From the NCBI GenBank assembly GCA_016794505.1, contig JAEUJZ010000049.1, positions 136-64,135 on the forward strand: 64,000 nt of DNA, written 5' to 3'. The notes beneath the pieces are model-generated. The model was not told the origin of the DNA. It did not search any database and was given only the letters and a program-made list of their open reading frames with translations. Shown one piece after another: positions 1,648 to 52,129 of the stretch. The stretch comes from Myxococcales bacterium (lineage in GTDB: Bacteria; Myxococcota_A; Polyangia; Palsa-1104; JAEUJZ01). Each line of letters opens with the position of its first letter. Position 1 is the first letter of the stretch. The position numbers and the translations under genes were made by a program.

Positions 1648-1812
1648 CGCAACTCTCACGTTGCCCGCGCCGAGCGTGTGCCGACGCGCAGGGTGTGACG
1701 CATCCACCATGGCAGGCTGCGCCGTACTGGCTCTGAGCACGCTTCGACGCATGAAAGGTGATTGCATCGGCGCGTCGCGTTATGCGAACCTACTAACATA
1801 GGAGGAATTTTT

Positions 1813-3635: not shown

Positions 3636-5843
3636 GTGCGTCGCCTTGCTTATCTTCGACAGGTATCGGCCATCGCTGCGTTCGTCGGTGGTCTTGGCAG
3701 CGTCGTCTCGACGGCGCAGGCTCAGACTGCGACGCCGGCCAACGGCTTCCAGGTCAATCGCTACGAGCCCACAAGTGCCGGTGAGTGGTCACTCATGGTC
3801 GACCACCCTTGGTACAGCTCGATGCGCTACTTCGCCGCCGGCATTACTCTGAACTATGCACATGCACCGCTGGTCGTCGGCACGCGCGACGCCAACGGGG
3901 TGTTCACGCGAAACGGGGCGGCGATTGCGCATCAGCTCTTGGGGCACGTCGATCTCGCTGGGTCCTTTTTGGATCGCGTGCAGATCTCGGCGACGCTGCC
4001 GATCACGCTGCTGGAACGCGATGATCCGATGGGTATCGCGGCGATGCGTGGTGTATCGCTGGTGTCCTCTGTGGCAGTGGGAGATCCGCGCTTCGGGCTC
4101 AAGGTGCGGCTGTTTGGCCAGCCGTACCGCGGCGCTATCTCGATGAGCTTGGGGGCCGATGTCTGGGTGCCGGTGAATGCGCTCGCCGGCAATCCGTTTC
4201 CGGCGCAGGTCGGCGAAAGTAGCGTGCGTATCCTGCCTAAGCTGATGCTGGGCGGGCTGTCGCACGGTGTGATGTGGTCGCTGAACGCGGGCTTCCTGTA
4301 CCGGCCGTTTGGCACGGTGGCGGGTCAGGCGGCAGCACCGGGCAACACCATGGACTCTGAGCTGCAGATCGGAGCCATGATTGGCTACGCCAGCTATGAG
4401 AAGCGCTTCGCGATCGGACCGGAAGCGCTGCTTAGCACCATGGTGGGGCTGAACCAGCCGGGCACGGCCTTTAAGCAGGACTACACCAGCCTCGAAGTCC
4501 TGCTCGGCATCCACTACAACATCGCCAAGATTCTGCAGCTCAGCATCGGCGGTGGCGTGGGCCTATTGCGTGAACCTGGCACGCCGGACGCTCGCGGGCT
4601 CTTGCGCCTGTCCTATGCGCCGATCCGCGAAGAGAAGCCCAAGGATCGCGACGGCGACAGCATCCCAGATAAGCGCGATGCTTGTCCCGATGAGCCGGGG
4701 GTCGTGACGACGGATCCGATGACCAATGGCTGCCCGCCGCCGCCCAAGGATAGCGATGGCGATGGCATCGTTGATCCGCAGGATCAGTGCCCGACCGAGC
4801 CGCAGGGCAAGCATCCGCACCCAAGTCGCCGAGGCTGCCCGAACACGGACAAAGACGGCGATGGTGTCTTCGACAACGAAGACAAGTGCATCGACGAACC
4901 CGCAGGCAAGGACGCCGATGCCGACCTGCCCGGCTGCCCGCTGCGTGACAAGGATGGCGACGGCTTCTTCGACAAGCAGGATCAGTGTGTCGACACGCCC
5001 GCTGGCGCCAACCCCGATCCAAGCAAGCCCGGTTGCCCAGACAAGGACAGCGACAACGACGGAGTCTATGACGCCAAGGATCAGTGCAAGGACGTGCCGT
5101 CGGGCTTCAATCCTGACCCTGAAAAGCCCGGCTGCCCCTTGCCCGACCGCGACAACGACAAGGTGCCGGACAAGGTCGACGCTTGCCCGGACAAGCCTGG
5201 TGCGCCGAACACCGACCCGAAGAAGAACGGCTGCCCTGGCTTGGTCGAGATGAAGGACGGCCAGATCGTGATCCTCAAGCAGGTGTTCTTCGCGACCAAC
5301 AAAGACGTCGTGCTGAAGAACAGCTTCCCGGTGCTGGATGCGGTGGTTGCGACGCTGAAGATCATGACCCAGGTCAAGAAGGTCGCCGTCGAAGGACACA
5401 CCGACAACAAGGGCCAGGCCGACAAGAACCGCGATCTGTCAAACCGCCGCGCCAAGAGCGTCGTGAAGTACTTGGTCGATCACGGCATCGACGCCGGCCG
5501 CCTTGAGGCCATGGGCTATGGCCCGGATCGCCCGATCGCGGACAACAAGACGGAAAAAGGCCGCGCCAAGAACCGTCGCACGGATTTCCGTATCGTCGAT
5601 CCGCCTTCAGCAAATCCCGCGCAGGCGCCTGCCCCCAGCGCAAGCCCGCCGGCCAACACGCAGTCTGAGGCTCCTGCCAAGCAGCCGTCTGAGGTCAAAA
5701 AGACGGACAAGGCGGACAAGGCCGGCAAGGGCAAGCCCGCTCAGAAGGCGCCGTCGAGCCAACCCGCCAAACAGAAGAATGCTGCAGCGCCCAAGGCGGC
5801 CGCTGCGGCCAAGGCGGGCAAGGCGCCCAAGAAGGCCAAGTAG
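3636..5843 (+). CDS. OmpA-family outer-membrane protein with thrombospondin type-3 (Ca-binding) repeats and Lys/Ala-rich tail
   Basis: GTG start after aaaggggg; signal peptide; repeated D.D.DG..D..D motifs; OmpA_C motif GHTDNKG...NRRAKSV...NRRTDFRIV. Confidence 0.8.
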   Translation: MRRLAYLRQVSAIAAFVGGLGSVVSTAQAQTATPANGFQVNRYEPTSAGEWSLMVDHPWYSSMRYFAAGITLNYAHAPLVVGTRDANGVFTRNGAAIAHQLLGHVDLAGSFLDRVQISATLPITLLERDDPMGIAAMRGVSLVSSVAVGDPRFGLKVRLFGQPYRGAISMSLGADVWVPVNALAGNPFPAQVGESSVRILPKLMLGGLSHGVMWSLNAGFLYRPFGTVAGQAAAPGNTMDSELQIGAMIGYASYEKRFAIGPEALLSTMVGLNQPGTAFKQDYTSLEVLLGIHYNIAKILQLSIGGGVGLLREPGTPDARGLLRLSYAPIREEKPKDRDGDSIPDKRDACPDEPGVVTTDPMTNGCPPPPKDSDGDGIVDPQDQCPTEPQGKHPHPSRRGCPNTDKDGDGVFDNEDKCIDEPAGKDADADLPGCPLRDKDGDGFFDKQDQCVDTPAGANPDPSKPGCPDKDSDNDGVYDAKDQCKDVPSGFNPDPEKPGCPLPDRDNDKVPDKVDACPDKPGAPNTDPKKNGCPGLVEMKDGQIVILKQVFFATNKDVVLKNSFPVLDAVVATLKIMTQVKKVAVEGHTDNKGQADKNRDLSNRRAKSVVKYLVDHGIDAGRLEAMGYGPDRPIADNKTEKGRAKNRRTDFRIVDPPSANPAQAPAPSASPPANTQSEAPAKQPSEVKKTDKADKAGKGKPAQKAPSSQPAKQKNAAAPKAAAAAKAGKAPKKAK

Positions 5844-6036: not shown

Positions 6037-6431
6037 AAGGCACGAGGCATGCAGCGACGGCTGAGCAGAGCAATTCGGCAGGCGTCGTCCCAGGAGCGTC
6101 CGGTTCCCAACGGCTGCCTGCGAAGTCCGTTTTCCATCCTGGGCATCACCGAAGCTCGGACTGGATCGGCCCGACAGCCGCGGGCTGCAGGTTGAACAAG
6201 GTTGGGCAGAGCGCCGCATGTCCCAGGCGAACCAGGCACGAGGCGCAGGCGACCGCGAAAAGACCCAGGACCATATTGTGCCGCCTAGCGCACTTCGTTA
6301 TGGTGTGCGCCTCACCAAGCCACTCCTATGTCGAGCTGTGCGGTGTCTGACGATCAGCCCCGATGCCGCCTGACCCGAGCGGCAGTCTGAGCCGCTCTTC
6401 CACAAAGCCTGCTAGCCAAGGAGGTCCGTTC

Positions 6432-7043
6432 ATGTGTACACCGACGCTTCGCCGTATTGCCCCCTTCTGTCTTCTCGGACTGTTTGCCGCCTGTGGTCAG
6501 CCCGTCGATGATCCAGCAGCGCAGCAGCCCGAAGAGGCGCTAGAGAACACGCCGCCCGGTCTGATCGTCTTCGATGAAGGCGCACCGCTGCCGGCGGACT
6601 TCGTCATCCAGGCGCTCACCGCCAGCGAGCAGACCACGATGCTTAGCACGGTCAACGCCAAGCGAACCCGCGGCGCCACCTGCGGCACCACGGCCTACTC
6701 GGCTGCACCGGCTCTGGTCACCAATGCCAAGCTGGTACAGGCGGCCGAAGGCCATGCCGCGGACATGGCGGCGCGCAACTACTTCAGCCACTACACCCAG
6801 GGGACCAACGCCAATCCGGGGCAGCGCATCACGGCCACCGGATACAAGTGGTCAACCTACGGCGAAAACATCGCCGCCGGGCAGACCTCGATCGCCGCCG
6901 CCGTCGATAGCTGGTACAAGAGCGCGGGGCACTGCGCGAACTTCATGAACAAGAACTTCACGCAGGCTGGCTTCGGCAAGGGCTACAGCGCTAGCTCGAC
7001 GTACAAGAACTATTGGGTCGCGGTGATGGCGAAGCCGCTCTAG
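6432..7043 (+). CDS. CAP/SCP/PR-1-like domain lipoprotein
   Basis: SD aaggagg before the ATG at 6432; lipobox LFAAC; CAP signature region GHCANFMNKNFTQAGFGKGYS and GENIAAG. Confidence 0.65.
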   Translation: MCTPTLRRIAPFCLLGLFAACGQPVDDPAAQQPEEALENTPPGLIVFDEGAPLPADFVIQALTASEQTTMLSTVNAKRTRGATCGTTAYSAAPALVTNAKLVQAAEGHAADMAARNYFSHYTQGTNANPGQRITATGYKWSTYGENIAAGQTSIAAAVDSWYKSAGHCANFMNKNFTQAGFGKGYSASSTYKNYWVAVMAKPL

Positions 7044-7122: not shown

Positions 7123-8256
7123 CTAGAAGTCGACGCGATTCATCTCGTCCCCAAGAAAGTCGGGGGCCAAGTGGGCGTAGAGTAGCGTGGTCTTGACGTC
7201 GCTGTGCCCGAGGATCTTCTGCAGCGCCAAGAGGTTGCCACCGTTCATGATGTAGTGGCTCGCGAACGTGTGGCGCAGCGCATGCCAGGGATTGGGTAGG
7301 ACGCGAACCCCCGCCGCACGCAGCAGCGCCGGCAAGCCCAAAAGGGCGCTGCTGCGTGATTCCATACCCCAGGTTCCTCGTCGCTGTTTCACTGGAAACA
7401 CCAGCCCCGCATCGGTCTTGGGGCAGCACTGTGCCCAGTCTTGAAGGTGCGAGATCACGGCATCCGGCAGACGCAGGTGGCGCGCCTTGCCGGACTTGGG
7501 TGTACCGCGATAGCTGCGGGCGATGGTCAGACGCTTGCTCGTAACGTCCAGATCGCGCCAGCGCAGGCCCAAGAGCTCGCCTTTGCGGACGCCGGTATGC
7601 AGCGTAAAGAGCACACGCAGATAGAGCAGCTTGGCGTCGACATCGCTCTGCGCTTCCGGGCGAGCAGCGCCAAGCAGCGTGCGAACCTCGTCCTTGCTCC
7701 AAAAGTCCAGAGCGCTGGGTGAGGCTGGCTTTTCGATCCCGCGCGTTGGGTTGCTTGGCACCAGTCCCTGACGCACGGCCCATGAAAAAATCAGGCCCAG
7801 CGTGCTGAGTACGTTGCGCACGGTTCCGGCACCTCGCGTTGCGGCCAAGCGATCTCGCAGCCGAGTGACATCTGTGGCGCGCAGGGCATGCGCGGGTGTG
7901 CTGCCGATCGCTGACAAGGCCGTAGACAGCACGGCGCGCACGCGTGCTCGATAGGCAGCCAGATCCTTGATGCGAGGCCGGCTGTATTCGACAAGAAATC
8001 GCTCGGTCAGCTCGGCCAATGTCAGCTTGGTCTGATGCGCAGGGACGCCCACCTCGCCACGAGCGATGCGCGCCTCGATCTGCACGAGCAGCTTGCGCGC
8101 CTCGGCATACGTTGGCTGCTTGCTCGCGATCTGACGACGCCTGCCCTGTTCATAGAAGCGCAGATAGAAGCCGATGAAGCGACCGCGGCGAACGCACTTG
8201 ATGACTTCGCCCAAGACATCCCCCGTGGCGATCGTAGCACGCGAGCGTCGTCCCAC
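7123..8256 (-). CDS. tyrosine site-specific recombinase (phage-type integrase), paralog of 565-1647
   Basis: WHALRHTFASHYIMNGG...LGHSDVKTTLLYAHLAPDFLGDEMNRVDF; N-terminal LRFYEQGRRRQIASKQ matches int1. Confidence 0.85.
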   Translation of the reverse strand: MGRRSRATIATGDVLGEVIKCVRRGRFIGFYLRFYEQGRRRQIASKQPTYAEARKLLVQIEARIARGEVGVPAHQTKLTLAELTERFLVEYSRPRIKDLAAYRARVRAVLSTALSAIGSTPAHALRATDVTRLRDRLAATRGAGTVRNVLSTLGLIFSWAVRQGLVPSNPTRGIEKPASPSALDFWSKDEVRTLLGAARPEAQSDVDAKLLYLRVLFTLHTGVRKGELLGLRWRDLDVTSKRLTIARSYRGTPKSGKARHLRLPDAVISHLQDWAQCCPKTDAGLVFPVKQRRGTWGMESRSSALLGLPALLRAAGVRVLPNPWHALRHTFASHYIMNGGNLLALQKILGHSDVKTTLLYAHLAPDFLGDEMNRVDF

Positions 8257-10341: not shown

Positions 10342-12561
10342 CTAGAAGCGGGCGACATGGGCCCTAGACGCCGCCGCGGTATGGGCGCGCACTGGATCAT
10401 CGTCGGTGATCAGGCTGCCACGATGGATGTGGGCGCGATACGCTGCGGCCAGGCCGCGGTTGACTTCGACGACGTCTTCGTTGAACTCGATCTGCTTTTC
10501 GTTGATCAGTGGCAGCGTTTTGACCGCGTCTTGCGTGTCGATGATGCGGCCGTGCGGGACGAAGCGCCCTTCGGGGAGCTCGACGCCAACAACCACCGCG
10601 CCGATGCCGATAAAGCAGCGGCTGCCGATAATTGAGTCATGCACGACGGCCTTGAATCCAACGAACGTCTCGTCACCGATATAGCAGGGGCCATGGACAA
10701 GCGCGTCGTGCGCAATGGACACATTGCGGCCGATGAAGATGGCCCAGCGTTCGTTGCCGACGTAGACGTATTTGTCTTTCAGCGCGTGCAGGACGACGCC
10801 GTCTTGGATGTTGGTGTTGTCACCGATAAAAAACGGCGAGCCTTCATCGGCGCGCACCGACGATCCAGCGGCAAGATGCACATGATCGCCGAGCACGACA
10901 CGTCCAATCAGCACGGCTTGGTGATGCACGAACGCCGATCTCGCCATGATGGCCCGCCCGCGGATGTTCGACAGCCACTTCTGCCGCTCGGGGGGCGACT
11001 CGTAGTGACCGGAGTGCCGAGTGTGCTGCGTTTCTTCACGGTGCAGCGTGGCGCGAATGCCTCCGGCGCGCTGTTTTTCAAGCTGCTCGGCCACGGATTT
11101 TTCTCCGCGATGCAGATAGGCATGCACCGCATGCAGCGCGATGCCACCGATGAGGCCCCACATCAAGTGACCCGTGACTGTGCCCACGGCGGCAGCCAGA
11201 AATGCAAGCGCCTCGATGCGGCTCTCGTGATACAGCTTGACCAGCGTGCCGACCTCGATCAGGCGGCCACCGACGACGCACAGCAGCCCAGCCAAGGCCG
11301 CCAGCGGAATCTGCGCAATGTACTTGCTGCCGTACAGCATCGCGACAAGCAGCGCCAGCGCATGAACCAAGGCAGAAAGCCGACTGCGACCTCCCGACTG
11401 CACGTTGACGCCCGAGCGCACGATGACGCCTGTGACCGGCATGCCAGAAAACAGGCCCGAGCCCAGGTTGGCCAAGCCCTGACCGAAGAGCTCTAGGTTC
11501 GGGTCGTGATGCGAGCCGTCGCCTTTCATGCGATCGATGGCGCTCGCCGATAGCAGCGACTCGACCGAGGCCAACAGAGCCAGAGGTACGGCGCGGACGA
11601 ACAAGTCGAGCCACTTTTCATCCGGTTCGACGGGCAGCTTGGGCATCGGCAGCGACGATGGAATGGCACCGACTCGCTCGATGTTCCAGCCCAGGTATAC
11701 GGCGACGAAGGTCGCGACGATGACGCCGACCAGCGCCGCTGGAAAGCGCTTGAATCGCGACATGCCGATGGTGAACAGCGCCACCATCAGGCCGCAGACG
11801 ACGGCCAGCCAGACCACGTGATGCAGCCACAGAGGCTGATGCATCATCTTGGCCAGCTCAGACACTTTGTAGTCAAAGCCCAGAAGCTCGGGAATTTGCG
11901 TGTCGAGCAGCTTGAGGCCGACTCCGGTCGTGAAGCCCGCGAGTACGGACTCGGGCACTAGCTTGCCGTAACGACCGGCCATGGCGAAGCCCAAGATCAG
12001 CTGCAGAGCACCGATCATCAGAGCGACGGTGGCTACGCCTTCGGCGCCAAAGTCGGCGGTGATTGCGGCCACCATGACTTGCAGCGCCGCGGCCGGGCCG
12101 GTCACTTGCAATGGGGCGCCGCCAAAGATCGACGCCAGTGCGCCACCGATGGCCCCCGCCAAGAGCCCGGCACTCGGCGGTAGACCGCAGGCGACAGCCA
12201 GCGCCACGTTCAGTGGCAGCGCCACCGCCGCGACGGTCAGGCCAGCCAAGATATCCGACGGCAAGCCCTGACCCCGATGCACCGCGGCCCAGCTATTTAG
12301 CCAGTAGCGAGCGGCCGCCCGCACATCGCGGTGCCAGGCCTCGACGTACTCGCGCTGGTCGAAGGGACGGCCTATGCGCGCTGCTTTGCCTGGGGCGCCA
12401 CCTCGCGACGCGCTGGCTTTCGGGGGCGCCCGATACGGAACACCATGCTTTACAGGGGGCGCTGACGACGGGGGCATTGACGAGAGAGGCCGTGAAGATG
12501 CCGGAGCCTGCATGGCGCGCATTGTGCCGAACAAATGACGAAATCGTAATCCTTTCGTCAT
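10342..12561 (-). CDS. SulP-family anion (sulfate/bicarbonate) transporter fused to a C-terminal gamma-class carbonic anhydrase-like (left-handed beta-helix) domain; no STAS domain
   Basis: SulP TMD with LPSDILAGLTVAAVALP start motif; the C-terminal 200 aa match the gamma-CA family (IGDNTNIQDGVVLH, His ligands in VLHAL and SIAHDALVHG); single ORF with no intervening stop; start chosen at MTKGL, so the 112-aa upstream extension is rejected. Confidence 0.6.
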   Translation of the reverse strand: MTKGLRFRHLFGTMRAMQAPASSRPLSSMPPSSAPPVKHGVPYRAPPKASASRGGAPGKAARIGRPFDQREYVEAWHRDVRAAARYWLNSWAAVHRGQGLPSDILAGLTVAAVALPLNVALAVACGLPPSAGLLAGAIGGALASIFGGAPLQVTGPAAALQVMVAAITADFGAEGVATVALMIGALQLILGFAMAGRYGKLVPESVLAGFTTGVGLKLLDTQIPELLGFDYKVSELAKMMHQPLWLHHVVWLAVVCGLMVALFTIGMSRFKRFPAALVGVIVATFVAVYLGWNIERVGAIPSSLPMPKLPVEPDEKWLDLFVRAVPLALLASVESLLSASAIDRMKGDGSHHDPNLELFGQGLANLGSGLFSGMPVTGVIVRSGVNVQSGGRSRLSALVHALALLVAMLYGSKYIAQIPLAALAGLLCVVGGRLIEVGTLVKLYHESRIEALAFLAAAVGTVTGHLMWGLIGGIALHAVHAYLHRGEKSVAEQLEKQRAGGIRATLHREETQHTRHSGHYESPPERQKWLSNIRGRAIMARSAFVHHQAVLIGRVVLGDHVHLAAGSSVRADEGSPFFIGDNTNIQDGVVLHALKDKYVYVGNERWAIFIGRNVSIAHDALVHGPCYIGDETFVGFKAVVHDSIIGSRCFIGIGAVVVGVELPEGRFVPHGRIIDTQDAVKTLPLINEKQIEFNEDVVEVNRGLAAAYRAHIHRGSLITDDDPVRAHTAAASRAHVARF

Positions 12562-12700
12562 GTTGGCCGCGACACGCGCGCTCGGCCACTGCGGTGCGCC
12601 ATGACCGGATTCGTTCTTAGGGACTGCCTTTGATCTCGGCAGAGCAGAAAAAACTTCAAAAAATTTGCTCTGGTGATCCCTGCACGGCAGCATCTCTTGT

Positions 12701-13738
12701 GTGCCGATCTTTGCGCAATCCACCGAGCGCTCTCTGCGGGTATCTAGGCCTGTATTGGCCCCCGCGGCGGTTCCTGCCGATCCGTCGATATTTACCCCCA
12801 AGCTTACGCGGCAATCTTCGACCCGTCGACAGCCGGCTGTAGAGCCCGCGTTTGCCGGTATCGAGGCGCGGCCTTTCCTAAAGTGGGCGGGAGGCAAGCG
12901 ACAGCTCTTGCCGCAGCTTCTGTCGCGCGTGCCGGGGGCTTTCCGCCGCTACCACGAGCCATTTGTCGGTGGCGGGGCGCTGTTCTTCGCGCTACAAGCC
13001 CGGCAGCAGCTGCCGCAGGGGGCGCGGCTTTCGGATATCAACCCCGAGCTGGTGAATGCCTATCAGGTCGTCCGCGATCGCGTCGAGACCTTGATTGTTC
13101 TACTTGGTGCATTTCGCAATGAAGAGGATTTCTATTACGAAATCCGCGCGCAAGATCCCCAGACCTTAGATCCGGTACAGCGAGCCGCTCGTCTGCTTTA
13201 TCTAAACCGGACCTGTTTCAATGGTCTGTTTCGGGAAAACCGCGATGGCCGCTTCAATGTGCCGTTTGGGCGCTATCGCAATCTGCAGATCCTGCGAGAG
13301 AACGATCTGCGCGCCGCCAGCCGGGCCCTGCGCGGCATCTGCATCGAGCAGTCTTCGTTCGACGCGCTGGCCGACTGCGTCGAGCCGGGCGACTTCGTGT
13401 ACTTCGACCCGCCCTATGCGCCGCTGTCGCGTACGGCTTCGTTCACGTCGTACAGTCGAGGCGGCTTCGACGATGAGGCGCAGCGACGCCTGGGGGCGCT
13501 GGTGCGTGCGCTTTCGGCTCGCGGCGTTCACGTGCTTTTGTCGAACTCGTCGGCGCCGCTCATCTTCGACATCTATGACCACCCCGAGCACTTGGTCGAG
13601 CAGGTGCTGGCATCGCGCGCCATCAACAGCCGCGCCGACCGCCGCGGCAAAGTCCACGAAGTGCTGGTCGCCGCCGGCCCCCACGTCGACAGCCTGCGCC
13701 GCCGCCAAGCCTCCCAGCCGCTCTCGCTGTCTGCCTAG
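12701..13738 (+). CDS. Dam-family (D12 class) N6-adenine DNA methyltransferase, orphan
   Basis: RPFLKWAGGKRQLLPQL and DPPY motifs, collinear with E. coli Dam; no adjacent restriction endonuclease; GTG start, so the N-terminal extension is uncertain. Confidence 0.75.
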   Translation: MPIFAQSTERSLRVSRPVLAPAAVPADPSIFTPKLTRQSSTRRQPAVEPAFAGIEARPFLKWAGGKRQLLPQLLSRVPGAFRRYHEPFVGGGALFFALQARQQLPQGARLSDINPELVNAYQVVRDRVETLIVLLGAFRNEEDFYYEIRAQDPQTLDPVQRAARLLYLNRTCFNGLFRENRDGRFNVPFGRYRNLQILRENDLRAASRALRGICIEQSSFDALADCVEPGDFVYFDPPYAPLSRTASFTSYSRGGFDDEAQRRLGALVRALSARGVHVLLSNSSAPLIFDIYDHPEHLVEQVLASRAINSRADRRGKVHEVLVAAGPHVDSLRRRQASQPLSLSA

Positions 13739-14098
13739 CCAGCAGTTGGGCGGTCGCCCGCTGCAGCCTCGTTTCATGCTTTCTGTCACAGCTCCCAACG
13801 GCCATGACTGTCAGCCGAGCAAGGCGTGCGCCACGCAGTGTGGTGTGATAGCGCGCAGACCTTGCTGGCGCTGCGGGTCGGCCAGGCGATGTGCGGCACC
13901 GTCGCAACGGCGAGTCGGAGCAGCTTTCTTTGCGCGATCGCAGTCGATGCATGAGCGGCTGCGCGGGTCGAACGAACGCACTCGTGGGTTGAGCGGCCGC
14001 GTCGGCTTTCCACGGACTCCGACCGCCGGCTCGACGTCGCTCCTTCGTAGACTTGGCTTGCCGAGACGCGAATCCTGCTGCGAAGGTTATCGGAAGCG

Positions 14099-14125
14099 GA
14101 AGGTGTTTAATTTAAAAACACCTTC
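14099..14125. terminator. AT-rich perfect hairpin between the convergent Dam and C39-like genes (candidate bidirectional terminator)
   Basis: 10-bp stem gaaggtgttt/aaacaccttc with the 7-nt loop aatttaa; lies 3' of the minus-strand gene ending at 14167. Confidence 0.4.
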
Positions 14126-14166
14126 TTAGCCAGATCCGACTCATCTACGCTGGAAAATGGACCCAA

Positions 14167-15357
14167 TTATGCAGAATAGCCCTTGCGTGCAATCAGATCC
14201 GCGAGCTGATCAACGCCGAGCCAATATTGCGATTCGAAACCGGGGCGGTAATTGAACTTGGCAGGATCTGCGATAAGTGCAGCTTGCTCACTCTTATCGT
14301 ATCCGATGATACTTACATAGTGATAAATTGTCTCATCATCGGGATAGCCAGGAGGATTGGTATCGCCCGGCGGCGCAACAATATTGGCAACGATCGGATA
14401 GTTGTTATCGATGTCGGTGACGATGTCTTTCCACAAAAGATCGCGCTCTTCATCAGTCGCCGTTGCACCGGGAATGACCTTGTTTTCGTAATAACCAGTG
14501 CCCAGCCGTTCGTTTAGAGCCGACGTAATCAGGCCAATATGGGCTGTACCGACGACGTCGTTGGTGCCCAGCTGGTCGGCTAGCTCGCCCTGCGTCGGTG
14601 GGTTGTCCATCCGGGCCGACAGCGCAATTCGCGTCGAGGCCGGCCCGCACCAGTGACCCCATTCTTGCTGCTGGAAGTCGACATCGAGAATCTTGCGGTC
14701 CTCTTCGGTTGCTTCGGGACCACCGCCTCCCGTCTGCGGCATCGGAGCCCGTGCGGGCGGCGCGCCCCCACCCAGAGCGGGAGCAAAGTGCGAGACCTTG
14801 TGCCCCGCAGAGGCCTCCATTCCCGCCGTCGCAGCCGCCACTTTCTTCAGCAGATCGGCCTTCTTGCCATCGGGAGCCGCCTGGACCGCCGCCGCAAGGT
14901 TTTCCTTCAGAGCCGCTTTCTGTTCGGACGGGGCGTCCGGTCCCGTGGCCTTCGCTGCCCTCTTCGCCGCGATCGCGACTTTCTGGTCGGGAGGTGCCGC
15001 CTTTCCGAGCGTCTTGGCGGCCATCTTGGCGGCGAGCTCGACCTTTTGTGGATCGGGCGCAGTCTTGGACGCAGGTGCCCCACCGGGAGCCGCCCCAGCC
15101 TTCTGGGCGAGTGCTGGTTCCAGCTTGGCCAGCGCCTGAGGAGCCGCCTTGGCTGCACCGCCAGCATCGGTCATATGACCAAACAAGCTGGACAGAGCTT
15201 GGCTCGTCTTGGCCTGGGCCACAGGCTCGGCGACGGGTGCCGGAACGGCTGCGGACACAGGCGCGGCGGCCGATGGCGCAACCGACTTTGGAGCGGCACT
15301 GGACGGTGGGCTGGTCGGATGTACAGCAGCCTTCTTGAGCGCACCATCGAACGACAT
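14167..15357 (-). CDS. protein with Ala/Pro-rich low-complexity N-terminal half and C-terminal papain-fold cysteine peptidase domain (Peptidase_C39-like)
   Basis: Gln...WCGPAS...HYVSIIGYD arrangement (Gln/Cys/His); the C-terminal domain DNA (14167-14700) is clearly lower GC than the N-terminal-half DNA. Confidence 0.55.
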   Translation of the reverse strand: MSFDGALKKAAVHPTSPPSSAAPKSVAPSAAAPVSAAVPAPVAEPVAQAKTSQALSSLFGHMTDAGGAAKAAPQALAKLEPALAQKAGAAPGGAPASKTAPDPQKVELAAKMAAKTLGKAAPPDQKVAIAAKRAAKATGPDAPSEQKAALKENLAAAVQAAPDGKKADLLKKVAAATAGMEASAGHKVSHFAPALGGGAPPARAPMPQTGGGGPEATEEDRKILDVDFQQQEWGHWCGPASTRIALSARMDNPPTQGELADQLGTNDVVGTAHIGLITSALNERLGTGYYENKVIPGATATDEERDLLWKDIVTDIDNNYPIVANIVAPPGDTNPPGYPDDETIYHYVSIIGYDKSEQAALIADPAKFNYRPGFESQYWLGVDQLADLIARKGYSA

Positions 15358-15688
15358 GGAACAGTCCCCCGAAATGCTCGCAGCACAGCGAAATACTAAT
15401 AGTATCGCTGACTCAGCATTTCAGTTGCGCGGCTTTTTTCCGGTGATGTTCCCCCTACAGCGCGGCCCTTATCGCACTGGTTACCTCGATAGTCGTCTAC
15501 TGGTTCAATCCTATGTGCTCGGATATGGAGTCAGCGCCGAGCCCGCTGCACGGGTGACAAGCTACCTGTGCGCCGTGTTTTTCGGCGTGCTTCCGTTTGC
15601 GGCCTGGATGGTGCGATTGCGCGTTAGGCGCAACGCAGCGCTGCTCCGCTTGGCACATGCCGAGCGCGTCAGACCGCGACCGCGTGGG

Positions 15689-16612
15689 TCATGGCTTGGG
15701 GTGGGCCATTAGGAAGTCGTAGATGGAACCGGGCCACTGGGCGTTGAAGGCAGGAATGTGGCCGCCTCCTTCGAGGGTCCACAGCTCGACGGCCCCATCG
15801 CTGGCGCAGCCGGAATAGGACTCGACCTTGGTTTCCGCACCAGCCAGAGTGGACTCGATGTCGAGTCGGACGCCGTTCGTTGTGAGGGGGCCAAGGCAGG
15901 CGTTGCGGTTGGCCCAGATAGCGACGGTCTGGCGTGCCCCCGGTGTGAGCGGAGTGCCGTCATAGGCAACGTTGGTGTCGGCGGTGCCGTGGACTTGCAG
16001 CACCGAGACTTTGCCGACGGGACGACACTTGCTGGAATCAATCCACTGGCCACCGGCCAAGCTCACGATGCCAGCAATTTTCGCACTGCGATCACAGGCC
16101 ATGCGATGCGCCATGTAGCCGCCATTGGAGTGCCCCACGAGGAAGACCCGCTGGGGGTCGACCGTGTACCGGCTGGATAGGTCATCAATGACCGCGGTCA
16201 AGTAAGCAACGTCGTCGACCTTGCTACCAAAGAAATCGCAGCAGCCATCGGTGGCATTCCAAAAGCGCACGCCGACGGGGTCTTTGGTTCCATCCGGGTA
16301 GGCGTAGAGAAACGTGCGGGCATCGGCCAGCGGAGCCAGGTGCAGGACCAGCTCATTGAGCTCACCGCTGGCTGACAGACCGTGCAGCATCACGACAAGC
16401 GGAGTCGGTTTCTTGGCATCATAGCCCTTCGGTACTTTGTGCTTGTACGGGCGTGCCATGATCAGCGCGGCGGCTTCGGGGGACAAAGAAGCCGCTGCGG
16501 GCGGACTGCTGCCGGACGACGCTTGGCCGTCGCAAGCAGACAGACCGACAGCGAGTCCAGCCAACAACAGAGACAGTGGTGCCGCTCGGCGCATGAAGAC
16601 CCCTTTGCTCAA
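15689..16612 (-). CDS. lipoprotein alpha/beta-hydrolase (PHB-depolymerase/esterase family)
   Basis: signal peptide with lipobox LSAC; GHSNGG nucleophile elbow; VMLHG motif. Confidence 0.65.
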   Translation of the reverse strand: MSKGVFMRRAAPLSLLLAGLAVGLSACDGQASSGSSPPAAASLSPEAAALIMARPYKHKVPKGYDAKKPTPLVVMLHGLSASGELNELVLHLAPLADARTFLYAYPDGTKDPVGVRFWNATDGCCDFFGSKVDDVAYLTAVIDDLSSRYTVDPQRVFLVGHSNGGYMAHRMACDRSAKIAGIVSLAGGQWIDSSKCRPVGKVSVLQVHGTADTNVAYDGTPLTPGARQTVAIWANRNACLGPLTTNGVRLDIESTLAGAETKVESYSGCASDGAVELWTLEGGGHIPAFNAQWPGSIYDFLMAHPKP

Positions 16613-19230: not shown

Positions 19231-22125
19231 CTAGGGGACGACGATCGGGAACAGGTTCAGATCGACCGCCAGGAAGGCCCCGACGCGGATCATCGAGAAC
19301 GGATCGCTGTGCTCCATCGGCTGGTTGTCGACATAAAAGTACGTGCGTAGCTGCGGTGCATACGACGCGCCCACGCCGAAGGTAAGCGGCGTCTTGTCGG
19401 CGCCGAACTTGAGGTACAGGCCCGGCGACAGCACACTCAGAAAGCTGACTTCGCTGGCGACGTTGACCCGCGTCTGCGTGTTGGTCATGGTGTTGGCCGG
19501 CTGTCCGTTGTTGCTCACCCGCGCCCAGGCAAGCTGTCCGACGTCCAGCACCGTGGCAAAGAAGCCCCAGGACCAGTTGCGGTTGTGGTGAACGGGGAAC
19601 TGCAGATCCAGGCCCAGCGCCGCCATGGGGCCGAGCGCGAAGCCGCCCGCGAGACCCGGCTGCGAATAGCCGGGCGCCACCACTTCACCGCCGATCTGCA
19701 CGCCGACCACGCCGGTCACGGTGAGGCTGGTGCCCTGTCGCTTGCTGCGCCACGAACCGACTGGCGCCGCCGCCGCGCTGAGCGCCGCCGAGACATCCTT
19801 GGGATCCTTGGCCGCGGCCAGATCCGAAATGAGCGTGATGTATTTCCGTACGCTGTCGGGCAGGCTGGCTGTCTCGCCGACCGCGGCCAGGGCCACCAAG
19901 ACCTGACGAACGCCGTCGGCATAGGCGCCGCGCAGCATGTCTTGGCTGGCGTGCATCAGCGAAAGCAGCGCGTCGAGCTTGGGCGTATCTCGGACCGCGA
20001 CCAGCGTGGCGCCGGACTCGATGAGGTCGGCCACCAGACTCAGCGTCTCGGCGGCAACCTGTGCGGCGGGTGGAGGGCTGCCAGTACGCCACTTTTGAAT
20101 CCGCTGTTCCAGATCAAACACCGCCAGCGCCAGCGCCCGTACTTCGCGATAGCCCTTCTCATTGGAAGGCGTGCTTGAGCACGTTACATTCTGTGTGTTG
20201 GTAAAGAATTCTTTTAGTGGGCTTGGGATCTTGTCTTCGCCACCGAAGAATCGCCCAATAATGATGTGATCCGCTGGCGAAACACCAAGCTGCTTCAGTG
20301 CAGTGCAGACCGTCTCTTCATTCCATGTCAAGGAACCAGAGGCATGCACACTGCTTTGAATCGCGGCCACCAGGCCGCCAAACCGACTGGCGAACACGCT
20401 GGTTGCGGCAATTGCGCAGAAGGCATCCATGCCCTGATCGCTCGCAGCGTCAATCGCATGGGCGCATAGCGACTGTGAATCCAGGGTCGAATAGGCTTTT
20501 CCTAGCGTCGTACCCAACCCTGCCAGCAGCTCAAGAGCGGGTGTTCCCTTGCGCAGCCCAGCGAACACCGAATAGAGCCCCTCGACGGTATATGTGGCAG
20601 CGATGGCCATGCGCAGCTCTCGCGTCGGCACCGTCGCCGGCCAGAGCAGATCGATCGTCACGTGAAACAGGGACGCCGTGTTTTGCATCACCGAGTCAGC
20701 ACTGGGGTTACGGGCTAGCGCATTAATATAGTCATACGTCAATACCAACTCTTCCAGCTCTGGGGGTGTGGCGGGAGAGGCTTCGCACGAGAGGGGAGTC
20801 TCGGGCTTGAGCAGCTTCTGCATTTTTTCGGAGAGATGCGAAAAAACCGTGGGCTTCGTCAGGTCGACGATGTACTGTAGGGTTTTGTCGCGTAGAACGG
20901 TAGTCACAGTCTTGCAAAACTCACCGCGGTTCTTGGGTTTTGACTTCATGACTGTGGTGACTAGTTCCAGCAAACGATGGGCAAGCACCAACTGACATTT
21001 GTGTGTATGCCAAAGGCCATTCGGATTGTCTTTGGTGTCTTCGCATTGCGTTTCAATAGCTTTGGCTGGATTGGGGATCACGTGGGAAACTGCGTCCGCA
21101 ATGCGATGGACATCGCGCTGGCGCAGGGCCTGCAGCAAGTGGCTGATATTCCCACCCAATCCATACAGATATCCAAAGCTGGCAATCGGCATGCCTTCCA
21201 AGTCCGCACGGATCGCCGAAGAAAGCAGCGCACCGTGGCTGGCTGGCGAGTCCTCTGTCGCGCTTAGCAGCGAGCAGGTCTGAGGAAACAGCGCAGACGA
21301 TTCTGCGCACAGCTTCTTTTTAAACGCAGACACGAACCAGAGCACAAGCTCTTGATTGGCGCGATCCACCATAAAATCCGCCAGGCCGGTCACAAGGGTG
21401 CCTTGCCAAGACATGCCACTGGCGCTGCCTGCCGTAGTCGGTGGCGGTGATCCGCCGCGTTCCGCAAGAGTGGCCTTCCCCCACGCATTACATTTGGCTC
21501 TTAGAGCCTTCTCTTCTTGCGTTGAGAGGGGGGCCGCGGGAAGCTTGAGGTATGATTTGAATTCCAGTAACTTGTTGGAAGAGATGTGGTTGACGGCTGC
21601 CAGGAATATTTCGATATATCTGGTCGCTAGAATCACATGAGCTTCACTGAGAGGTTTCTTATCGTACGTCGCAAGGCTATCAGATAATGCCTTGACCTGT
21701 TCGGCGGTAGCATAGAGCTTCTTGCGCTCGATGTCTACTTCCTTGTCTGCTTGGGCCTTTTCGCCATCAAAGTATTGTTGCAGTAAGGAACCCAATTCTT
21801 TCTTGTCACGCTGACTAATTTGCAATATTGTATATAATTTGGTGTCTTTATTAGATCTGTTTTCCGCGACGCGTACCCAAATGCCAATATCATTTCCTCC
21901 TTCGGGAGATTTGTTTAGTTCTTGCTTTGCTGCATGCGCGATAGATTCTATATCTGCGAGCCTTAGAATGGATTCGCACGATGGTATGCTGGTTGGCGGT
22001 GTTGCCAGGGGAATCGGCTGCAACCGCATAGGTGCTGCTTGTGCGGGGTATGAAATAGACAGCAGGACAAAGGCCACGATGTGGCCTAGCGCTGTGCGTA
22101 TAGATGGATATTTCCGGGGCATCAT
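19231..22125 (-). CDS. large (964 aa) secreted protein of unknown function with possible C-terminal beta-strand-rich (barrel-like) region
   Basis: N-terminal signal peptide; alternating hydrophobic pattern in the last 190 aa ending LNLFPIVVP; strong GC gradient (5' coding end about 45% GC, 3' end about 70%). Confidence 0.6.
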   Translation of the reverse strand: MMPRKYPSIRTALGHIVAFVLLSISYPAQAAPMRLQPIPLATPPTSIPSCESILRLADIESIAHAAKQELNKSPEGGNDIGIWVRVAENRSNKDTKLYTILQISQRDKKELGSLLQQYFDGEKAQADKEVDIERKKLYATAEQVKALSDSLATYDKKPLSEAHVILATRYIEIFLAAVNHISSNKLLEFKSYLKLPAAPLSTQEEKALRAKCNAWGKATLAERGGSPPPTTAGSASGMSWQGTLVTGLADFMVDRANQELVLWFVSAFKKKLCAESSALFPQTCSLLSATEDSPASHGALLSSAIRADLEGMPIASFGYLYGLGGNISHLLQALRQRDVHRIADAVSHVIPNPAKAIETQCEDTKDNPNGLWHTHKCQLVLAHRLLELVTTVMKSKPKNRGEFCKTVTTVLRDKTLQYIVDLTKPTVFSHLSEKMQKLLKPETPLSCEASPATPPELEELVLTYDYINALARNPSADSVMQNTASLFHVTIDLLWPATVPTRELRMAIAATYTVEGLYSVFAGLRKGTPALELLAGLGTTLGKAYSTLDSQSLCAHAIDAASDQGMDAFCAIAATSVFASRFGGLVAAIQSSVHASGSLTWNEETVCTALKQLGVSPADHIIIGRFFGGEDKIPSPLKEFFTNTQNVTCSSTPSNEKGYREVRALALAVFDLEQRIQKWRTGSPPPAAQVAAETLSLVADLIESGATLVAVRDTPKLDALLSLMHASQDMLRGAYADGVRQVLVALAAVGETASLPDSVRKYITLISDLAAAKDPKDVSAALSAAAAPVGSWRSKRQGTSLTVTGVVGVQIGGEVVAPGYSQPGLAGGFALGPMAALGLDLQFPVHHNRNWSWGFFATVLDVGQLAWARVSNNGQPANTMTNTQTRVNVASEVSFLSVLSPGLYLKFGADKTPLTFGVGASYAPQLRTYFYVDNQPMEHSDPFSMIRVGAFLAVDLNLFPIVVP

Positions 22126-22140
22126 TTGGACTCTCCTTGT

Positions 22141-23304
22141 TTACCCACGTACTTCTAGGGAAAGGCTGGTAAAGATCGCGCCGTCGACCCGCACGTACAA
22201 AGAGCCGCGTGGCGACTGCAGGTGCCAAAACGGCAGCGTCGGTGAGCAGGACTGCAGGCAGGGCTGCCAGACAAGCTCGGGGCGAAGCAGAGGCAAGTCG
22301 CGCAGCCAGGAACGATACCTGGCTATTGAGGGATCGCGCAACAGGTGTGGCAACAGCTGTACTAGAGAAGGAAGTAGCTGAAGGCGAGGCTCAGTCAGTG
22401 TATGATAACTTAACAATGTGCCATCATGCGCGTCGAATGCGGCGACCCCATGGATCAATCGCTCGGACGTCATGGGAACCAATGCATAGTATTTGTTCCC
22501 TTGATCGAGATAGCGCACAAAGCGTGGAATTCCGACATCCAGCAAGCGATGCACATCATCCAGACGGTGCATCTCTGCAGCCAGCGCGGGATACATGGCG
22601 AGCGTTTTCTGGACGAGAGAGAGTAATTCGTCGGTTTTGAGTCGTCGTCGACGCAATGATGAAGGGATCAGCTTCGGAAAGCGCGGCAATGGAACCGCGG
22701 GCGACTGCGCGCTGCACAGTGCGACATATTGCTCCACGAAGCCAGTGGCGGCACAGGTGATTGGAAATGAATATTGAGTAATCCAAGAATTATATGTGAC
22801 ATATACGCGGCCATAGCCATGAGCAGCGTTGCACTGATCGCTGTCACTGTGATTTCCAATGGATTTATGGAATGGAATATTTAGCCATAAGCCTTGCATG
22901 CCATATCCATATGGATCGTCGGGCGTGTTGTCTAATAGAACGCCTTGCACTACAGACCAGTGGTGATTTTTGTATATGGGAACAACGCAGGGACGGCGAT
23001 GCGTGACGATCGTGTCAATGATATAGTGCAATGAGTCGTATACGGTTTCAAATTGCGAATATGAGTATTTGAATGCATCGTCCCGTGGCAATAACTCGTT
23101 AATGGCCGCGGTGAGCCCTGCTGGATCTGAATGCCAGGTAGAATCCTGTTTGTTGTGTTCGATAATCTCAGCAATTTGCGCTTGATTGACGGTTTGACTG
23201 GGGACGCCCTGCGTCGCTAGCAGCATCATGGCGCTTGCCGGACCACAGTATGTTCGACCGTCTTGATGGTGATACTTACAAGTCACTTCTTGTTGCCAAG
23301 TCAT
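22141..23304 (-). CDS. papain-fold cysteine peptidase-domain protein (Peptidase_C39-like N-terminal domain plus unknown C-terminal domain)
   Basis: HHQDGRTYCGPASAMMLL ... NHHWSVVQGV; low-GC DNA; 15-bp gap to the downstream 964-aa gene (operon). Confidence 0.55.
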   Translation of the reverse strand: MTWQQEVTCKYHHQDGRTYCGPASAMMLLATQGVPSQTVNQAQIAEIIEHNKQDSTWHSDPAGLTAAINELLPRDDAFKYSYSQFETVYDSLHYIIDTIVTHRRPCVVPIYKNHHWSVVQGVLLDNTPDDPYGYGMQGLWLNIPFHKSIGNHSDSDQCNAAHGYGRVYVTYNSWITQYSFPITCAATGFVEQYVALCSAQSPAVPLPRFPKLIPSSLRRRRLKTDELLSLVQKTLAMYPALAAEMHRLDDVHRLLDVGIPRFVRYLDQGNKYYALVPMTSERLIHGVAAFDAHDGTLLSYHTLTEPRLQLLPSLVQLLPHLLRDPSIARYRSWLRDLPLLRPELVWQPCLQSCSPTLPFWHLQSPRGSLYVRVDGAIFTSLSLEVRG

Positions 23305-36964: not shown

Positions 36965-38218
36965 GTCATCTTTTTGGCGCTGCTGCCGGCGGCGTTTGGG
37001 CTGAGCATGCTGCTGCGCAAGGTGAGCCGGCGGTCGCGTCGGGCTCGGCGGCGCCAAGCTGAAAACTTCACGGCGCTGGAACAGATCGCGAGCGGCATCA
37101 AGGTGATCAAAGCCATGGGCTCGGCCGCGGCCGAGCGGGCGCGTTATGAGCGGACCAACAGCGCTCTTTACGCCGCCAAGATGAAGATCGCGCTCGCCCG
37201 TGCCGAGAGTGATGCGCTGATTGGAGGCCTGTCGTTTGCTCTGATCGGCGTTGTGGTGCTGGGCAGCGCGGCAGCGATTGCACATGCGCGGATGGATAGC
37301 TCTAGCGTGCTCACGTTCATCACCGCGCTGATTCGTCTGACGACGTTGATGAAGACCGGCACCAAGGCCTATGGCGAGATCCAGGAAAATCTGCCAGCGG
37401 CCGCGCGCTTGTTCGCCGTGCTGAACCAAGAGAGCCGCATCACCGATCGCGCCGGAGCCCCTCCATGTCCGCGACCCCAGCAGGCGATCCAACTTCACAA
37501 CGTGCGCTTCGGCTATGGCGTCGGTGCGGAAGTCCTGCGTGGGGTCAACTTGACGCTGCCGGTGGGCAAGATCGTGGCTCTGGTGGGCGAGTCGGGATCG
37601 GGAAAGTCCACGCTCATCGATCTGATCTTGCGCTTTCGTGATGTCACAGGCGGCTGTATCAGCGTCGACGGTGTCGACATTCGCAGCGTGCAACAGGCCA
37701 GCTTGGTGCAGCACTGTGCCTTGGTCTCGCAGGACCTGTTTCTGTTCAACGACACGATCGAAAACAACATCCGCTATGGCCGGCCGGATGCGACAGCCGC
37801 CGAAGTCGAGGAAGCAGCACGACGCGCCCACATCCACGACACCATCTTGAAGCTGCCCGGCGGGCAGGGATATCAGACAGTGGTCGGGGATCGCGGCGAT
37901 CGCCTGTCAGGAGGCCAGCGGCAGCGCATCGCGATTGCCCGTGCCCTATTGCGCAATGCTCCGGTGCTGCTGCTCGATGAGCCGACGAGTGCGCTAGATG
38001 CCGAGAGCGAACATCATGTGCAAGCCGCGCTGCGCGAGCTTATGCGCGGGCGTACCTGCTTGGTGATTGCGCATCGCCTGAGCACGGTGCAGCACGCCGA
38101 CTGCATCTGCGTCCTGAGCCGCGAGACGGGAAACGTCGTCGAGACTGGCACCCATCAAGAGCTGCTCTCACGCGGCGGTGAGTACGCGCGCTTGGTCCAG
38201 ATGCAGCAGCTTGGCTGA
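36950..38218 (+). pseudogene. 3' portion of the same MsbA-like ABC exporter (TM4-TM6 plus nucleotide-binding domain)
   Basis: an in-frame stop at 36944-36946 precedes NWQFSAVIFLALLPAAFG; Walker A GESGSGKST, signature LSGGQRQR, Walker B LLLDEPTSALD; with 1-421 it forms a continuous ABC protein. Confidence 0.7.
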
Positions 38219-52106: not shown

Positions 52107-52129
52107 GGCGGTTTCTTAGTACTGCCGCC

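Follow-up and report, generated by a model that had tools for sequence, protein, structure and literature searches.

Among the described systems closest to the gene reported here are the endolysins of phages that infect actinobacteria (actinophages), in which Bxz2 gp11 is the archetype of the N5 cysteine-protease domain of mycobacteriophage Lysin A (Payne and Hatfull, 2012; PMC3314691). For this domain, cleavage of the gamma-D-Glu-mDAP bond was predicted, not shown (PMC3314691), and the Pfam family PF13529 is listed among the enzymatically active domains of the lysins of Gram-positive phages (PMC8223927). Here, we describe a gene at positions 14167-15357 on the minus strand of a stretch of 64,000 nucleotides (nt) from an uncultured Myxococcales bacterium (contig JAEUJZ010000049.1), the whole of which is called the window below. 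Its product of 396 amino acids (aa) is a homolog of the N5 domain and not an endolysin, and the gene shows an already established catalytic family in an architecture and a phylum that are new for it. We consider it moderately likely that it encodes a bacteriolytic-type peptidoglycan peptidase. In the following, the two parts of the protein, their relatives, their base composition and the gene neighborhood are described, and the explanations that compete for its function are weighed.

The gene and its parts are laid out as follows:

14167-15357, minus strand: complete open reading frame (ORF) of 396 aa from the program-made ORF list, stop codon at 14167-14169
14698-15357, minus strand: N-terminal region, aa 1-220, Ala/Pro/Lys-rich and clade-specific (from model confidence, composition, profile search and substitution rates)
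14815-15057, minus strand: four tandem Lys/Ala-rich repeats of ~20 aa (P-x-x-Q-K-V/A-x-x-A-A-K-x-A-A-K...), aa 101-181, seen in the translation
14170-14697, minus strand: catalytic domain, aa 221-396, predicted papain-fold cysteine peptidase of PF13529 (from Pfam, PHROG, phage and structural-model matches)
14665-14667, minus strand: Gln231, predicted oxyanion hole, six residues ahead of the catalytic Cys, invariant in 117 sequences
14647-14649, minus strand: Cys237, predicted nucleophile in the motif W-C-G-P-A, invariant in 117 sequences and matched in the alignment by the Cys of Bxz2 gp11
14320-14322, minus strand: His346, predicted catalytic base in the motif I-Y-H-Y, invariant in 117 sequences
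14266-14268, minus strand: Asp364, predicted third member of the triad in the motif I-A-D-P-A, invariant in 117 sequences

A database search returned one protein that is 100% identical to the 396-aa protein (P0001) and 16 further full-length orthologs with 61-85% identity, every one of them from uncultured samples. The genomic nearest relatives of the gene are metagenome-assembled genomes (MAGs) of Myxococcales, and the related contigs originate from activated sludge. Comparison of the orthologs gave ratios of nonsynonymous to synonymous substitution rates (dN/dS) of 0.06-0.41 across all segments of the gene. An original prediction, made from the DNA alone, had proposed a disordered region followed by a catalytic C-terminal domain, without a signal peptide. 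This outline is borne out by the AlphaFold2 (AF2) model, built from 117 sequences, and by Kyte-Doolittle hydropathy.

Pfam recognizes one domain in the protein, PF13529 (Peptidase_C39_2), which covers the entire model (positions 1-143 of 143) at aa 224-366 with 70.5 bits against a cut-off of 24; at E = 3e-19, this match confirms the C39-like C-terminal domain that had been proposed. In PHROG, three endolysin families were matched (phrog_6007, phrog_1519 and phrog_16428, at 7.9e-43, 2.4e-34 and 5e-17), and a tblastn search of 50,697 phage genomes found 571 records matched over at least 92% of the domain, all of them actinophages, with the hosts Mycobacterium (387), Gordonia (164), Corynebacterium (18) and Rhodococcus (2). 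All of the matches listed fall under genes for lysin A or endolysin, save one copy in phage Phlei that is annotated as hypothetical, and some of the matched phage genes bear the annotation 'protease C39 domain'. Over its full length, the domain can be aligned with aa 9-186 of Bxz2 gp11 (35% identity, E = 3e-25). The AF2 model has a per-residue confidence (pLDDT) of at least 90 across aa 221-396, and its top viral structure match in BFVD is the endolysin of Gordonia phage OneUp (E = 1.6e-15; template modeling (TM) score 0.81, normalized to the target), which superimposes with a root-mean-square deviation of 1.2 A over 178 columns and is followed by LysA proteins of mycobacteriophages. The top matches of Foldseek in the PDB all belong to the papain clan (clan CA): 22oc, Alr0975, AvrRpt2, Der p 1, GtgE and LahT. 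From these comparisons the domain is assigned to PF13529 and, within it, placed in one subfamily with the 'N5 / protease C39' domain of actinophage Lysin A. The profile of the bacteriocin-processing C39 peptidases, PF03412, found no match in the protein at E <= 0.1, and the nearest ABC-transporter gene lies ~22 kb away (36974-38218). Since there is neither a PF03412 match nor an ABC transporter, the protein is not a strict C39 peptidase, and 'C39-like' is a name that follows Pfam convention and implies no shared function.

The residues Q231, C237, H346 and D364 align with the equivalent residues of Bxz2 gp11. Gln231 is presumably the oxyanion-hole residue, as in papain, an assignment that we take from established knowledge of clan CA peptidases. 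The dN/dS of the catalytic domain, which is acidic (net charge -13, isoelectric point (pI) 4.4), is 0.06-0.08. Because the catalytic residues are invariant and the domain is under such strong constraint, the enzyme is almost certainly active, as judged from the sequence comparison.

In the N-terminal region, over most of aa 1-220 the pLDDT is below 50 and the region is predicted to be disordered, and the composition of the N-terminal half (31% Ala, 13% Pro) agrees with the Ala/Pro-rich character noted originally. Residues 1-180 are basic (net charge +10, pI ~9.8), and no hydrophobic signal-like segment is present, the peak of the 19-aa Kyte-Doolittle window being 1.18. The four repeats are predicted by AF2, at low confidence, to form amphipathic helices (aa 103-116, 123-136, 144-159 and 166-177) with hydrophobic moments of 0.65-1.13; in the DNA, the direct repeats D4 and D5 lie in the same stretch, and the repeats are kept across the orthologs. 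A dN/dS of 0.12-0.41 and indels that stay in frame show that the region is genuinely coding and is held under purifying selection. A profile built from nine of the orthologous regions was run in an exhaustive search of 1.84 billion representative proteins; its matches were limited to the cluster of orthologs, two of their fragments and a pair of spurious repeat proteins. This profile search was used in the stead of a word-index search with the N-terminal 215 aa, which returned P0013 alone and missed the identical protein. The proposal that the region is the delivery part of a modular toxin is thus not upheld, since the profile finds only orthologs or fragments; as far as these searches reach, the region is an invention of the clade of ~17 orthologs from uncultured Myxococcales and no shared toxin delivery module.

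The relatives of the catalytic domain are more widely spread. Hundreds of proteins of ~235 aa annotated as 'C39 family peptidase', from Streptomyces, Kribbella and Actinomadura, are 55-62% identical over the whole domain; these homologs carry signal peptides and are therefore regarded as extracellular enzymes. In a neighbor-joining tree the myxobacterial proteins form one clade (100/100 bootstraps) whose sister is that of the actinomycetes (97/100); the phage domains fall outside both, so that the domain groups with cellular proteins and the phage ones stand apart. The searches made found relatives of the domain only in actinomycetes and actinophages, in addition to a separate myxobacterial protein, P0018, and within the Myxococcota only the ~17-member clade and P0018 were found. 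As read from this patchy distribution, the domain would have passed between phyla at some time. The tree does not establish that such a transfer ran from actinomycetes to Myxococcales, as the myxobacterial proteins stand beside the actinomycete ones and are not nested among them. P0018 (L015, 1109-2863) has a lipoprotein signal, a region of ~200 aa and two tandem copies of an N5-like domain, and its gene adjoins one for a Cys-rich repeat protein with a MYXO-CTERM-like tail. The ~200-aa N-terminal region of P0018 has no detectable homolog and no match in PDB or PHROG, and a Rosetta-stone link between it and the VgrG3-like domain described below was dismissed for lack of similarity; going by a motif, the region of P0018 may perhaps be lysozyme-like. 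In Streptomyces armeniacus (L007:3971-6714) and Actinomadura livida (L009:3771-6711) the peptidase gene lies downstream of a gene for a regulator of ~330 aa of the HTH_20 type; between the two stands a Tat-signal esterase of PF00756 in Actinomadura and a 232-aa protein without an assigned role in Streptomyces. The order of regulator, small protein and peptidase may represent a conserved actinomycete locus.

The low GC content of the 3' third of the gene, on which the original prediction had built the idea of a domain acquired by recombination, results mostly from amino-acid composition together with an old, clade-wide trough in the GC content of third codon positions (GC3), and is no signature of a recent cassette insertion. 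The trough is located as follows:

14170-14550, minus strand: GC3 trough, codons ~270-396, ~0.50 against 0.74 expected, from change-point analysis and common to the ortholog clade

The GC content does fall, from 0.63-0.71 at 14500-15300 to 0.47-0.50 at 14100-14500, and in this the original description was right. The low-GC stretch itself, which had been placed at 14167-14700, is found at about 14130-14550, while codons 221-280, which carry the catalytic Cys, are GC-rich (GC 0.63, GC3 0.75). The GC3 is 0.68 in the N-terminal half, 0.75 in codons 221-280 and 0.51 in codons 281-396, and a maximum-likelihood change point falls after codon 269 (nt ~14550; 0.71 to 0.50), with a score that was equalled in 7 of 2000 permutations. 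The boundary thus lies ~50 codons within the domain, away from the junction of linker and domain at codon ~220. From the codon usage of 17 confident window genes, the GC predicted by the amino acids is 0.711, 0.639 and 0.574 for codons 1-220, 221-280 and 281-396, compared with 0.677, 0.633 and 0.497 observed, so that about three quarters of the drop is amino-acid composition, the sequence changing from Ala/Pro/Gly-rich to Asn/Asp/Ile/Tyr/Lys-rich. What is left is a residual GC3 deficit in codons 281-396 (0.51 observed vs. 0.74 expected).

This deficit is shared by the relatives. The 3' dip recurs in the orthologs at the loci L001, L004 and L006 and is weaker in L005, and among codons for invariant amino acids the third base is A or T in all five genes at 17 of 88 positions in codons 281-396, compared with 1 of 111 upstream (Fisher p = 4e-6). 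A recombination breakpoint was sought through synonymous divergence, and the divergence at four-fold sites is even along the gene (for example 0.39, 0.32 and 0.34 between the window and L004). The GC3 shift is common to orthologs down to 61% identity, with a dS of up to ~1.4 in the most distant pair. Since the trough is common to all orthologs it is old, and together with the even divergence this indicates that the 3' segment has been inherited with the rest of the gene since the clade ancestor. The nearest actinomycete homologs have a GC3 of 0.90-0.96 without a dip and are thereby excluded as a low-GC donor; the gene of P0018, on a contig of 69% GC, likewise shows no dip (GC3 0.91). Either an ancient event left the trough behind as a relic that ameliorates slowly, or selection keeps it. 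Of the inference from base composition to acquisition, the acquisition keeps some ground, as the phyletic pattern points to transfer, and the inference does not, as the shift starts in the middle of the domain and is not the mark of a cassette. An antisense ORF (14227-14517) that overlaps this part of the gene was also considered; it is open in all orthologs in the codon-complement frame only, as expected, and gives no evidence of a gene.

The original prediction had further named a paralog of the domain at 22141-23304, so that two copies would lie in one island. The 387-aa protein encoded there belongs to a separate module:

19231-23304, minus strand: orphan two-gene module with its own low-GC patch (GC 0.42-0.58), from family scans and synteny with L016

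The 387-aa protein reaches PF13529 with 24.6 bits at a cut-off of 24, has no PHROG endolysin match, and shows a conserved papain-like signature (Q-x5-C...H-W). Directly compared with the target, it gives a BLASTP E of 0.056 over 63 aa around the Cys and an hhalign probability of 10% over 59 columns, values at which the paralogy cannot be maintained; from these alignments, the two would be related at the superfamily level at most. The protein is 100% identical to an NCBI MAG protein (locus tag JNJ46_10555) and has two non-self homologs among 5.8 billion proteins. Its partner of 964 aa (19231-22125) has a signal-peptide-like start and no family match, and the pair is conserved on one other MAG contig, L016, with 39% identity for the 387-aa and 57% for the 964-aa protein; the partner proteins of the orphan pair range from 789 to 964 aa. 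Because ~5 kb of genes of normal GC lie between the low-GC patches of the target and of the orphan module, the two patches are not one island, and the notion of two copies within a single island falls with the paralogy.

The neighborhood of the peptidase gene is marked by an esterase gene, by the remains of a lost gene and by a conserved leader, with a gene for a Dam methylase converging from the other side:

15689-16612, minus strand: lipoprotein esterase of the polyhydroxybutyrate (PHB)-depolymerase / feruloyl-esterase family (from Pfam and NCBIfam; lipobox L-S-A-C in the translation)
15623-15673, minus strand: remnant, the last ~17 codons of a deleted T6SS_VgrG3-like_C gene (tblastn, 76% over 17 aa)
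15358-15446, minus strand: conserved region of leader or promoter, in which the Shine-Dalgarno sequence GGGGGA precedes the ATG by 7 nt, from a four-locus alignment
14099-14125, no strand assigned: perfect hairpin with 10 bp in the stem and 7 nt in the loop, 42 nt past the stop codon (inverted repeat I5)
12701-13738, plus strand: Dam methylase, convergent (PF02086, 3.3e-57)

The esterase, whose relatives in the PDB are a feruloyl esterase (6e-15) and an esterase of the PHB-depolymerase family, is the sole neighbor that is kept beside the peptidase gene in all related genomes (L001, L004 and L005), the rest being different, and the pair of esterase and peptidase is kept in at least four genomes. 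In L001-L003 a gene of 299 aa stands between the two, which has the lysozyme-like domain T6SS_VgrG3-like_C (PF21277, 6.8e-58) behind an N-terminal extension of ~95 aa that is rich in Pro, Gly and Ala, with no obvious signal peptide; the PF21277 domain also matches large phage proteins in PHROG. In the window, the remnant of this gene is also seen at the nucleotide level (15623-15670; blastn, 85% over 48 nt, E = 7e-9), and L004:9751-9845 holds another, frameshifted remnant (aa 129-163). As the remnants in the window and in L004 differ, the order of three genes is ancestral, and at least two independent losses of the lysozyme-like gene have taken place. The esterase was also considered as an analog of Lysin B, and no similarity to the LysB of phage ZoeJ was found. 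The esterase beside the Actinomadura homolog proved unrelated to it, and a cassette of esterase and peptidase common to actinomycetes and myxobacteria was discarded, the esterases not being homologous (E = 8 and 1.5). Other upstream genes on the minus strand encode an LCM-type methyltransferase and an unannotated ORF of 309 aa.

Ahead of the peptidase gene, the nucleotide similarity to L001, L004 and L005 reaches 15439-15446, and the leader core kept in the four genomes reads ...GCAAC-N-G-N-AATGCTGAGT-NN-GCGATACT...TTTCG...GGGGGAC...ATG. As four genomes have kept these ~90 nt ahead of the ATG, the peptidase gene probably has its own promoter. No Rfam family matches the leader, and the Rfam and tRNA scans of the window were empty.

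On the downstream side, the convergent Dam gene and the perfect hairpin between it and the peptidase gene are as they had been reported. The RNA fold of the 91-nt 3' region, in which the hairpin is embedded, has an energy of -28.7 kcal/mol (z = -3.5); the hairpin has no U-tract and is not called by a canonical terminator scan. The window has a single copy of it, none of the orthologs is followed by one, and the similarity to the closest ortholog locus, L004, stops exactly at the hairpin. The simplest reading is that it is the transcript end at a rearrangement junction. In the gap of 360 nt that follows (13739-14098) no coding signature was found in any frame, and the genes downstream of the peptidase differ in the window, L001, L004, L005 and L006, so that the small immunity-like ORF that a toxin might be expected to have downstream is missing; no conserved adjacent immunity gene is present at the window or ortholog loci. 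The genes of the window were scanned with family libraries, and among the genes scanned there is none for VgrG, PAAR, Hcp, Rhs or the core of a type VI secretion system (T6SS), nor for holin, LysB, capsid, tail or terminase. In L005 an ORF on the minus strand ~1 kb downstream of the ortholog (12173-13126) has a partial match to TssG (34.7 bits, aa 60-137). A link to T6SS by way of this ORF was rejected, as the match is partial and neither neighbor is a T6SS gene, one being an ORF of 486 aa without annotation and the other coding for an AMP-binding enzyme. In the window, the gene beyond Dam (10342-12897, minus strand) encodes a protein of the SulP sulfate-permease family to which a hexapeptide-repeat (LbH) domain is fused at the C-terminus. 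Taken at their longest, the SulP and Dam ORFs share ~200 nt at their 5' ends (12701-12897), and therefore at least one true start lies further in.

The explanation that we favor takes the protein as a peptidase of the cell wall. By homology to the N5 domain of LysA, the C-terminal 176 aa would cut the peptide part of peptidoglycan, which is thus the presumed substrate. In the clade ancestor, the Sec signal peptide of the actinomycete relatives would have been swapped for the basic, disordered extension of 220 aa with its four repeats. The gene then stood in a trio of envelope-degrading enzymes, with the lipoprotein esterase and the VgrG3-C-type lysozyme-like enzyme, of which the lysozyme-like gene was later deleted in this genome. 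The enzyme may act outside the producer on other bacteria, in predation or in competition, and the basic N-terminal region may serve export or the binding to anionic cell surfaces. A lytic role is supported by the orthologs in L001-L003, which adjoin the lysozyme-like gene, and by the esterase partner with its lipoprotein signal. Several points weigh against it. Pfam recognizes neither a second catalytic domain nor a wall-binding domain in the protein, which also lacks a signal peptide, a membrane-spanning segment and any secretion motif known so far, and no feature of the sequence explains how the enzyme would leave the cytoplasm. In the literature consulted on C39-type lysin domains, the activity of N5 was found as a prediction only, and no paper was found for the closest solved structure, 22oc, named 'P210 CD lyase'. 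PF13529 and the structural neighbors include enzymes that do not act on peptidoglycan, such as the phytochelatin-synthase-like Alr0975, AvrRpt2 and GtgE, and the lysozyme-like partner was lost in at least two lineages in which the peptidase was kept, which shows that the two are not obligatorily coupled. A fuller account, improbable when all of its parts are taken together, would have a clade of uncultured, probably predatory Myxococcales of activated sludge capture a peptidase of the Lysin A type from the pool of actinobacterial and actinophage genes and use it against prey envelopes in an endolysin-like kit with the esterase and, ancestrally, the lysozyme-like enzyme. The N-terminal region would in that account replace the signal peptide, through a Sec-independent export not yet described or by docking to anionic prey surfaces, and the cluster of A/T-ending codons in the His/Asp half would be a selected segment of slow translation for folding or export, as opposed to what is left of foreign DNA.

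Other explanations are less probable, each to a different extent. The protein could be a protease of protein or peptide substrates, either for the maturation of co-secreted enzymes, as reported for some members of PF13529, or for proteins of prey or host. PF13529 is indeed a generic 'C39-like' family of the papain clan, with AvrRpt2, GtgE, C1 cathepsins and the C39 leader peptidase LahT as structural neighbors, and the want of a recognized cell-wall-binding module would fit such a role. However, the papain-like enzymes that cleave proteins match at the level of the fold only (10-16% identity), the closest relatives with a functional context are by far the catalytic domains of endolysins, in sequence as well as in structure, and the ancestral neighbor is lysozyme-like, so that we regard this explanation as unlikely. 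An equally unlikely alternative is an enzyme that the producer uses on its own wall and not as a weapon, be it an autolysin in growth, division or spore morphogenesis or a cytoplasmic peptidase of murein peptides in recycling. The missing signal peptide fits a cytoplasmic location, the conserved promoter/leader of its own and the strong purifying selection are in accord with such a role, and the missing immunity gene would pose no problem if the activity were otherwise regulated. Against this stands the restriction of the family, among the Myxococcota searched, to the ~17-member clade and P0018, which is unlike a housekeeping gene, and the relatives are secreted proteins or phage lysins, with ancestral partners that are exported or lytic-type enzymes.

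The model of the original prediction, a recent foreign cassette of low GC fused to a GC-rich delivery region in a modular contact-dependent toxin of T6SS-like or polymorphic type, with two copies in one island, is quite improbable and has in large part been refuted already. It could draw on the two-part architecture without a signal peptide, the GC3 trough in the 3' third, the naming of the relatives' neighbor domain after the VgrG3 of T6SS, the partial TssG-like ORF ~1 kb downstream in L005 and the flanks of the esterase-peptidase unit, which vary in every genome. The GC3 shift, however, lies in the middle of the domain in all orthologs and the synonymous divergence is even; the N-terminal region is found on no other protein among the 1.84 billion representatives; no conserved immunity gene is adjacent; genes for VgrG, PAAR, Hcp, Rhs and the T6SS core are all missing among the window genes scanned, and the TssG match is partial and isolated; and the 'second copy' is an unrelated orphan family. 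Least probable of all, to the point of being hardly credible, is the relic endolysin of a decayed prophage. The domain is of the endolysin type and two tyrosine integrases are encoded in the window (565-1647 and 7123-8256), but these are more than 5.9 kb off, past genes of housekeeping type, and no holin, LysB, capsid, tail or terminase gene was seen among the genes scanned. Moreover, the pair of esterase and peptidase is present in at least four genomes with a dN/dS of 0.06-0.08, and the domain groups with cellular proteins in the tree.

Two further regions of the window stand out at a distance from the peptidase gene. The tyrosine integrase genes at 565-1647 (plus strand) and 7123-8256 (minus strand) flank genes for a protein with a legume-lectin domain (1762-3591), an OmpA/thrombospondin-repeat protein (3636-5843) and a CAP-domain protein (6363-7043). 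This stretch bracketed by integrases may be an integrated element; a tRNA gene was not found in the window. A third patch of low GC (52000-55300, GC 0.50-0.58) holds a gene for a helix-turn-helix (HTH) and Peptidase_M78 protein, which is ImmA/IrrE-like (53133-54314, GC3 0.54), as well as an IS1-like transposase gene (54359-55270) and small ORFs that match no family.

If the protein is a peptidoglycan peptidase, a module with which actinophages burst their hosts would also circulate in the cellular genomes of two phyla, and a myxobacterial lineage would have re-tooled it with a new N-terminal region. It would then offer a tractable standalone enzyme from which to learn the bond that is cut by the widespread N5/'C39' domain of Lysin A, and it would point to a possible role of a basic disordered region in export or targeting in predatory bacteria. 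As it stands, the gene is a plausible and ordinary gene for a lytic enzyme, and the main value of the analysis is in correcting the reading as a foreign cassette with a duplicated domain in an island.

The comparison with known systems places the gene at different distances from each of them. The T6SS effectors that act on peptidoglycan, of the Tae and Tge types, degrade the wall without Sec signals and are used on other bacteria; the Tae effectors are of the NlpC/P60 or CHAP type, a family different from that of the peptidase described here. The likeness to T6SS effectors and to VgrG3 of Vibrio cholerae is thus one of concept, with the ancestral neighbor carrying PF21277, and the gene differs from them in having no adjacent immunity gene, no linkage to VgrG, PAAR, Hcp or T6SS core genes among the window genes scanned, and no known targeting motif. 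Among solved structures, 22oc (released 2026-03-18) and Alr0975 (PDB 2bu3 and 6tjl) are the best matches, with Foldseek E-values of 3e-6 and 4e-5 at 13-14% identity; 22oc is the only PDB match at the sequence level, through a shared Q-x5-C...G-T-x-x-G-T-D-H motif, and Alr0975 acts on glutathione, not on peptidoglycan. The C39 peptidases of PF03412 (PCAT and LahT, PDB 6mpz) have the papain-clan fold and the Cys/His/Asp triad in common with the peptidase described here (target-normalized TM score 0.69), while LahT is ~14% identical to it and the peptidase has no fused or adjacent ABC transporter and no double-glycine leader context.

Much closer are the actinomycete proteins of ~220-250 aa (P0019, P0042, P0051 and P0062), which have the same full-length domain with the Q/C/H/D residues and a C-terminal K-G-Y-[SA]-A. 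They differ in carrying a Sec-type signal peptide and a short linker where the target has the basic disordered region of 220 aa, and their gene neighborhoods are different and non-homologous. The N5 domains of LysA proteins (Bxz2 gp11, ZoeJ gp28, Bantam gp31 and Skog gp3) are homologous to the target domain from end to end, with 35-40% identity. In the phages, N5 is N-terminal and usually fused to a glycosidase or amidase and a cell-wall-binding domain (PMC3314691), whereas the domain of the target is C-terminal. The latter is found in a cellular gene between an esterase and Dam, with no holin, LysB or other phage gene among the window genes scanned. In the Gordonia phages Bantam (L013) and Skog (L014), Lysin A is split, and the C39/N5 domain forms a standalone protein of ~215 aa that is encoded beside a second lysin gene and a holin gene. 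From these split genes it follows that the domain is able to function as a separate polypeptide.

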